Shown here: in pieces, positions 59,287 through 59,423 of the stretch | Layout of the letters: each line of letters begins with the position of its first letter | Numbering within the stretch: the stretch's first letter is position 1 | Source of the DNA: a bacterium ADurb.Bin243 | GTDB lineage: Bacteria > Muiribacteriota > UBA9980 | Length of the DNA: 64,000 nt | Direction: 5' to 3' | NCBI GenBank assembly: GCA_002069765.1 | Contig: MWBZ01000005.1 | Location: 42,214 to 106,213, forward strand | Made by a program: the position numbers and the translations under genes | Notes under the pieces: generated by a model | Seen by the model: only the letters and a program-made list of their open reading frames with translations | The model's database searches: none | Told to the model about the DNA's origin: nothing

Positions 59287-59423
59287 ATCAGTGTAGAGTG
59301 GATAGTGAATAGTTGAGACTGGGGCTCGCCCTGTGAGCTTTATATATAAAATATTAAAAATGCCTTATCTAAATTTTCAAAACTCCTTTAATTCTCAACT
59401 CTCCACTATGAACTCTTAACTTA
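59287..59423. repeat. MITE-like ~137-bp element, copy 1 (internal ~23-bp imperfect terminal inverted repeats).
   Basis: ~85% identical to the reverse complement of 61647-61788. TIR tagagtggatagtgaatagttgaga ... tctcaactctccactatgaactc. Confidence 0.65.

Follow-up and report, generated by a model that had tools for sequence, protein, structure and literature searches.

The window, a 64-kb stretch of DNA from ADurb.Bin243, carries two copies of one repeat, c1 on the plus strand (~59290-59426) and c2 on the minus strand (~61643-61778), which share ~89% identity across 134 nt; a profile search with a 24-copy profile returned no third copy in the 64 kb. c1 is found after a gene for a DegT/DnrJ-family aminotransferase (58179..59282, plus strand; Pfam PF01041, E = 5e-120), beginning within ~7 nt of its stop codon, and is followed by the gene for a hexapeptide-repeat acetyltransferase (59510..60256, plus strand). 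The second gene between the copies is that of acetate kinase (ackA; 60355-61572, plus strand), and c1 and c2 bracket these two plus-strand genes. c2 starts 34 nt past the stop codon of its own upstream gene, MnmE (61853-63259, minus strand), and is located between the terminators of mnmE and ackA: a terminator-like hairpin of mnmE (GGCTCCCCCAGGGGCT then TTATATTT; 61832..61847, minus strand) separates the mnmE stop codon from the left end of c2, and the acetate kinase terminator hairpin (61595..61644, plus strand; inverted repeat I3 with 25-nt arms, 88% complementary) abuts its other, truncated end. An earlier note on this DNA placed both copies in the same sense just after a stop codon, with the flanking genes convergent; both copies do lie in the sense of the upstream gene, but the convergence is not across one spacer. 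The repeat itself could conceivably provide the stop codon of DegT (GGATAA vs GGGTAA); similarity upstream of the stop is only at chance level, and DegT has the length seen in relatives (367 aa vs 366-369). The DegT protein shows 100% identity to one of 'bacterium ADurb.Bin243'.

Copy c1 extends over 59271..59459 (plus strand) in the DegT-acetyltransferase spacer; it is truncated on the left and has a right terminal inverted repeat that is present in diverged form. Positions 38-209 of the 24-copy profile align at 59287-59457 by nhmmer (envelope 59271-59459, E = 4e-52) and the BLAST match to the full reference copy is q41-210; the outer left terminal inverted repeat (~20-27 nt) is absent, and the onset of homology at ~59271-59287 is beside the DegT stop. 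The left inner arm (59289..59318, plus strand) is a heptamer array, AGTGTAG AGTGGAT AGTGAAT AGTTGAG, which pairs with 59393-59422 in the predicted fold; the latter stretch is the right inner arm (59393..59422, plus strand), composed of TCTCAAC-type heptamers with a period of 7 and 4.1 copies (TRF). The central GC hairpin, TGGGGCTCGCCCTGTGAGCTTTA (59320..59342, plus strand), has three pairs that are G-U in the sense strand, and the outer right terminal inverted repeat (59433..59459, plus strand) reads TATACCTGTACGATGTTAGAAAGAATA against the consensus TTTACCCATACGATATGAAAAAGAACC. The two inner arms of c1 are the sequences that the earlier note had called a terminal inverted repeat with 19/23 complementarity; the pairing exists, as the arms at 59294-59318 and 59393-59415 match at 19/23 positions in a reverse-complement alignment, but the repeat is internal, and the true ends are outside the coordinates then given. 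The unit was likewise said to end at 59423, while family homology reaches 59459 in c1 and 61818 in c2. The motif agtgaatag, reported as occurring twice in copy 1, has a single occurrence in c1 (59304) and two in c2 (61756 and 61777, minus strand); the actual regularity of the repeat is a period-7 tandem array in both arms (TRF).

Copy c2 extends over 61645..61818 (minus strand) and displays the complementary defect, with an intact left terminal inverted repeat and the right ~37 nt, including the right repeat, missing; it aligns to profile positions 1-175 by nhmmer (E = 6.9e-61) and to q1-175 of the full reference by BLAST (93%). The outer left terminal inverted repeat, GGCTCTTATTCATTTCATGCGGGTAAG (61792..61818, minus strand), has one mismatch to the consensus and is the only such match in the window. 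It is followed by the left inner heptamer arm (61750..61786, minus strand; period 7, 4.9 copies, TRF array 61752-61785), the central GC hairpin of the predicted fold, TGGGGCTCGCCCTGCGAGCTCTA (61726..61748, minus strand), and the right inner heptamer arm (61646..61676, minus strand; TRF array 61648-61664). The break in c2 adjoins the acetate kinase terminator hairpin, which stands where the right end is missing. c1 is without its left end and c2 without its right end, and therefore neither copy can move now; judged by their sequence, both are one-ended, immobile relics. As both lack one end and show no target-site duplication, their identity as copies of a non-autonomous transposable element (MITE) is given by homology to intact copies elsewhere. 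Sub-family sites in the alignment separate the two, with c2 grouping with copies L127, L102, and L118 and c1 with the type of the reference copy, L006; placement in different sequence sub-lineages indicates independent insertions and not a duplication. Both copies also contain a weak sigma-70-like match at the same element position on the antisense strand (59351-59380, minus strand, in c1; 61689-61717, plus strand, in c2), consisting of TTGAAA, a 17-18 nt spacer, and TAATAT or TATTCT, with agreement at 9/12 positions; these putative antisense promoters would point back at the upstream gene.

The description of the repeat as hairpin-forming is borne out by folding, since c1 and c2 both give long hairpins, each just past a stop codon in gene sense. 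For c1 (59283-59432, plus strand) the predicted energy is -34.7 kcal/mol with z = -4.0, and 0/200 shuffles are as stable; for c2 (minus strand) it is -42.0 kcal/mol with z = -3.4, and again no shuffle reaches that energy.

Other features of the window are observed at a distance from the repeats. A ~14.4-kb block of minus-strand ORFs (43562-57948) separates a glycosyltransferase gene from DegT, two genes that are only ~0.9 kb apart in the relative L128; most of the scanned ORFs of the block have no Pfam match, and it contains an internal diverged duplication (~47.6-50.6 kb vs 53.2-56.0 kb, 71-77% nucleotide identity). The block looks like a lineage-specific island. At 1824-5347 a putative bacterial microcompartment-type cluster is found, with translations judged by eye; it includes two paralogous 94-aa BMC-shell-like ORFs (3345-3629 and 5063-5347, forming the 263-nt repeat D1) and two EutN-like ORFs, all by eye, and near it are a DeoC-domain protein and RpiB, both Pfam-confirmed.

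Intact copies of the element were obtained from scans of genomes, which gave 5 loci with true copies, and of metagenomes, which gave 29. The genome scan used the 17-mer GAGTGGATAGTGAATAG, for which ~70 chance matches are expected in 596 Gb, and 5/98 loci held true copies; this pattern also drew in unrelated heptamer arrays. The genomes with copies are those of 'bacterium UBP16_UBA6123' and 'bacterium JPNA_metabat.86', and the metagenome contigs belong to JGI Ga0116149, Ga0116157, Ga0116158, Ga0116186, and Ga0079063 and ENA ERZ795056; one contig, L120, is the window genome at 99.97% identity. Together, genomes and metagenome contigs provide ~28 distinct insertion sites. From 24 aligned copies of related genomes and metagenomes the consensus element is ~212 nt, a length too short to encode a transposase, and homology among intact copies is ~40 nt longer per side than the unit of the earlier note. 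The reference copy (L006:3641-3852, 212 nt) starts with GGCTCTTATTCATTTCATGTGGGTAAG and finishes with TTTACCCATACGATATGAAAAAGAACC, which are the 27-nt outer terminal inverted repeats; its left 26 nt match the reverse complement of its right 26 nt at 21/26 positions. On the right side, the outer repeat reads as the reverse complement of GGTTCTTTTTCATATCGTATGGGTAAA, and both ends are present in ~20 copies. The element as a whole is one long imperfect palindrome, with outer terminal inverted repeats, inner arms of 4-6 tandem heptamers, and, in the middle, a GC hairpin that leads into an A/T-rich stretch; the apparent invariance of this middle part is to some extent a product of the metagenome search pattern. 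The number of heptamers differs among copies (L099, L119, L066), and these differences in the arms, read as slippage, count in favour of a decayed MITE.

Evidence for transposition is provided by the flanks of the two-ended copies. The 8-nt flanks of 20 such copies are identical (8/8) in 13 and agree at 7/8 or better in 18, while none of 80 shifted control flanks reaches 7/8 (mean 2.4); the duplicated octamers are AT-rich and different at each site, for example AAAAAAGT, AGTAATAT, AGTTTTGA, GATTCATG, and ACCTTTTT. The element inserts in AT-rich intergenic DNA and duplicates 8 bp of its target. Relatives of the window supply sites without the element: in L128-L130 (DegT 77% identical) the gene order DegT-acetyltransferase-AckA is as in the window, and the DegT-acetyltransferase gap is 1 nt with the ribosome-binding site inside the end of DegT; in L132-L134 (DegT 69% identical) the order DegT-acetyltransferase is retained with a gap of 19 nt, followed by a GFO/IDH-family gene in place of AckA. 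The corresponding gap in the window is 227 nt and holds c1; c1 entered the junction between DegT and the acetyltransferase, two genes that are tightly packed in two relatives. In a further relative, L131, the DegT-acetyltransferase spacer (1462-1637, 176 nt) is a TACGAG/TACGAA hexamer microsatellite with no MITE, and the junction is a recurrent site of sequence gain, by a MITE here and by a microsatellite there. The suggestion that the repeat is MITE-like is strengthened beyond its first form by the outer 27-nt repeats, the 8-bp duplications, the ~28 sites, and the empty sites in relatives; c1 and c2 are, with high confidence, decayed copies of a ~212-bp MITE.

The consensus tip of the element, GGCTCTT (GGCTCTTATTC...), equals the tip of published ISL3 ends, and the duplication length of 8 bp also agrees. 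For the ISL3 element ISArsp7, the inverted repeat is GGCTCTTCGCGG... and the direct repeat is 8 bp long (PMC6305408); in Microcystis, a MITE and its ISL3 partners have ends that begin GGCTCTTCG and 8-nt direct repeats, and the MITE is tied to ISL3 transposases (PMC11448079). Based on the seven terminal bases and the duplication length, the element is probably ISL3-mobilised. The window and ~0.3 Mb of related DNA yielded neither an autonomous element with the same ends nor an ISL3 transposase, and Pfam gives no transposase among 20 window ORFs; a fuzzy search with the terminal repeats, and one for GGYTYTT...AARARCC pairs at a spacing of 0.9-3.5 kb, returned chance-level pairs only. Two scans of viral contigs gave 0 autonomous partners, and BLAST gave no plasmid or phage match.

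A different machinery would be a REP/BIME system with RAYT, integron attC sites, or a MITE of another IS family that duplicates 8 bp (IS6, IS256, IS66). Such an origin could account for a long imperfect palindrome located after genes, and would fit searches that gave no transposase partner; however, regular 8-bp duplications together with 27-bp terminal inverted repeats are hallmarks of DDE transposons and not features of REP or attC, the copies are single and dispersed with no cassette arrays, and the GGCTCTT tip agrees with published ISL3 ends. The element tip is also unlike those of IS26 (GGCACTG) and IS66 (GTAAGCG), and other machinery is considered very improbable. Integron attC was dropped, given single dispersed copies with 8-bp duplications and no R''/R' core sites by eye. 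Contig L116, which has the repeat at both ends, was examined as a possible circular element; its LutABC-like and oxidoreductase genes indicate a chromosomal contig broken at repeats. A pairing in which c1 and c2 bound a composite transposon, or serve as arms for recombination that inverts the acetyltransferase-acetate kinase segment, is suggested by two mutually inverted, ~89% identical copies that bracket exactly two genes, 2.2 kb in all, and by metagenome contig L100, which has a different flank beyond c2. The order and orientation of DegT, acetyltransferase, and AckA are nevertheless the same in relatives that have no MITE in the DegT-acetyltransferase spacer, c1 lacks its outward-facing end, and the two copies are from different sub-lineages; furthermore, L120 on the c1 side (window 57292-60776) and L100 at the ackA-c2 junction match the window arrangement, with no inverted variant seen. 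This pairing has the slimmest chance of all the readings weighed. L100:3497-4378 is 99.9% identical to window 60942-61823 through ackA, the terminator, and c2, and diverges 5 nt past the left end of c2, where unrelated sequence stands instead of mnmE; a rearrangement at the MITE on the strain level, or else an assembly chimera, would explain this flank.

The possibility raised in the earlier note, that the repeats form a family of structured 3'-UTR or terminator RNAs, is here considered as a unit that is primarily a selected structured RNA (a 3'-UTR stabiliser, processing site, or terminator) for which spread by transposition is incidental. In its favour is orientation, which does not look random relative to genes: between co-directional genes ~15 copies are in sense and ~4 in antisense (binomial p ~0.02-0.03, with crude ORF calls), a bias that neutral transposition does not predict, and many copies begin 6-56 nt after a stop codon, as c1 and c2 do in the sense of their upstream genes. 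Three further copies are in convergent spacers and three in divergent spacers, and these last, together with the copies antisense to their neighbours, count against a selected RNA. The central hairpin gains three extra G-U pairs in the sense strand only and is then followed by a U/A-rich run; folding energy displays no strand asymmetry, however, with the L006 fold at -58.1 kcal/mol for the sense strand and -60.6 kcal/mol for the antisense strand, and with the sense strand more stable in 14/24 copies (mean difference -2.3 +/- 7.3 kcal/mol, Wilcoxon p = 0.17). When the long-hairpin structure of L006 is mapped onto the 24-copy alignment, covariation equals the shuffled control (52 pairs, 24 copies), a comparison whose power is limited by low divergence: 94.4% of cells pair vs 94.3% with the 3' partners shuffled, pairs changed on both sides number 2 vs 1.9 in shuffles, and the covariation score is 0.039 vs 0.041. 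Mutations disrupt pairs at the rate expected by chance, and the RNAalifold consensus retains only the central hairpin, without compensatory change. No terminator-like site (GC stem and U-tract) was called inside the element, in L006 or either window copy; mnmE and ackA have their own terminator hairpins beside c2, and a terminator would be harmful in c1, which lies within a probable operon. Rfam at the gathering threshold gave no match to the window or to any of 10 related loci, and when 59200-61900 was scanned permissively, with E up to 10, only chance-level matches appeared, none of them on the element core; no tRNA or tmRNA was found, and a literature search with the heptamer sequence found no papers. 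MITE transcripts are known to be processed, those of Correia elements by RNase III and those of ERIC by RNase E (PMC10969869), which would favour a selected RNA. Apart from the orientation bias, an RNA family gains no positive support, the covariation, strand, terminator, and Rfam tests all being negative, and a primarily selected RNA is judged quite unlikely. A slightly better, though still low, probability is given to a selected module limited to the ~67-nt core (heptamer array and GC hairpin), acting as an RNA 3'-end or processing signal or as a protein-binding array; if true, MITE backbones would carry the selected core, and recombination would have brought it into a second repeat family. 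Such a module would account for the sense bias, the sense-only G-U pairs, the chimeric repeats in L108 and L125/L126, and the similar architecture seen in the unrelated Ruminococcus contig L043. The orientation bias and the sense-only G-U pairs make a transcription-related selective filter conceivable, of the kind described for Correia and ERIC elements (PMC10969869).

As a MITE, the element would have been moved in trans, with an ISL3-family DDE transposase recognising its GGCTCTT-tipped ends, and its hairpin would be a by-product of palindromic transposon architecture. c1 is probably co-transcribed with the operon and would then form a long RNA hairpin, which, by analogy with Correia and ERIC elements, may affect mRNA processing.

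Several known repeat systems resemble the element in part. Like the Correia elements (NEMIS) of Neisseria, it is a repeat of the ~100-200 bp type with terminal inverted repeats of ~26 nt. Correia elements duplicate TA rather than 8 bp, and carry IHF sites and promoter elements; they have no known link to ISL3. The element core forms chimeras with a second repeat family, in the manner of RUP, BOX, and SPRITE of Streptococcus pneumoniae, although neither the sequences nor the transposase families are the same; the transposase link of RUP is to IS630. The cyanobacterial STRR heptamer repeats, reportedly described by Mazel et al. in 1990, are likewise tandem heptanucleotide arrays in intergenic DNA, and AGTGAAT-type arrays are seen in Chamaesiphon and many other phyla; STRR are stand-alone tandem arrays, whereas here the heptamers are transposon arms bounded by inverted repeats and target duplications. 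In Streptococcus pneumoniae the coexisting small repeat families cluster and insert into one another, and in Neisseria the Correia elements are often co-transcribed with their neighbours, giving long RNA hairpins that are cleaved by RNase III (PMC10969869). ERIC/IRU of enterobacteria is a ~127 bp imperfect palindrome in transcribed intergenic regions, with an effect on mRNA that depends on the place of insertion (PMC10969869). The present element is also an imperfect palindrome but has no sequence similarity to ERIC/IRU; the mobility and target duplications of ERIC are poorly defined, whereas the duplications here are clear. A close likeness is to the ISL3-associated MITE of Microcystis aeruginosa (PMC11448079) and to ISArsp7 (PMC6305408), which share the GGCTCTT start of the repeat and the 8-bp duplication; the Microcystis MITE is also short, non-coding, and present in many intergenic copies. 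Unlike these ISL3 examples, the element has ends that are unrelated past the first 7 bases, arms of heptamer arrays with a GC hairpin core, and a host that is an uncultured candidate-phylum lineage from anaerobic digesters.

Related sequences were observed beyond the family. AGTGAAT, AGTGGAT, and AGAGTGA heptamer arrays recur in intergenic DNA of unrelated phyla, among them Acidobacteriota, Bacteroidota, Cyanobacteria, and Planctomycetota (e.g., L070, L044, L061), a cross-phylum set that is biased, being drawn by a 17-mer built of heptamers. In the Ruminococcus contig (L043:1688-1806) two inverted heptamer arrays flank small GC hairpins, as in the MITE core. The genomes that carry the element also contain a second repeat family with the inverted ends GGGCAGGGCGCCAGACAAATTTTTTCGGGGAC and CCCCTCAAAAATTTTGTCTGGCCCCTGC (L108:3900-4300, L034:3400-3700, L123:600-1180, L126:5250-5560), and in L108 and L125/L126 chimeric repeats hold the heptamer and GC-hairpin module inside this second family; a recurrent GC palindrome, CTGCGCAGACGCGCGCGTGCGCGCGTCTGCA, is found in the same genomes. 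Both the second family and the palindrome are absent from the window.

The repeat family is a lineage-restricted MITE of a known kind and not a new RNA; it belongs to ordinary bacterial repeat biology. For annotation, MITE relics is the appropriate label for the repeats, which should be entered neither as ncRNA genes or terminators nor as ends of a mobile cassette of two genes. The family can serve as a clean marker specific to one uncultured lineage, the anaerobic-digester clade of ADurb.Bin243 and UBP16_UBA6123, and it explains contig breaks and possible chimeric joins in metagenome assemblies of that clade. c1 shows that a MITE can be tolerated at a junction where two relatives leave only 1-19 nt between the genes, and, given the orientation bias, the family would be suitable for testing how selection acts on co-transcribed MITE hairpins; neither the tolerated junction insertion nor the bias would be surprising to a specialist in bacterial repeats.
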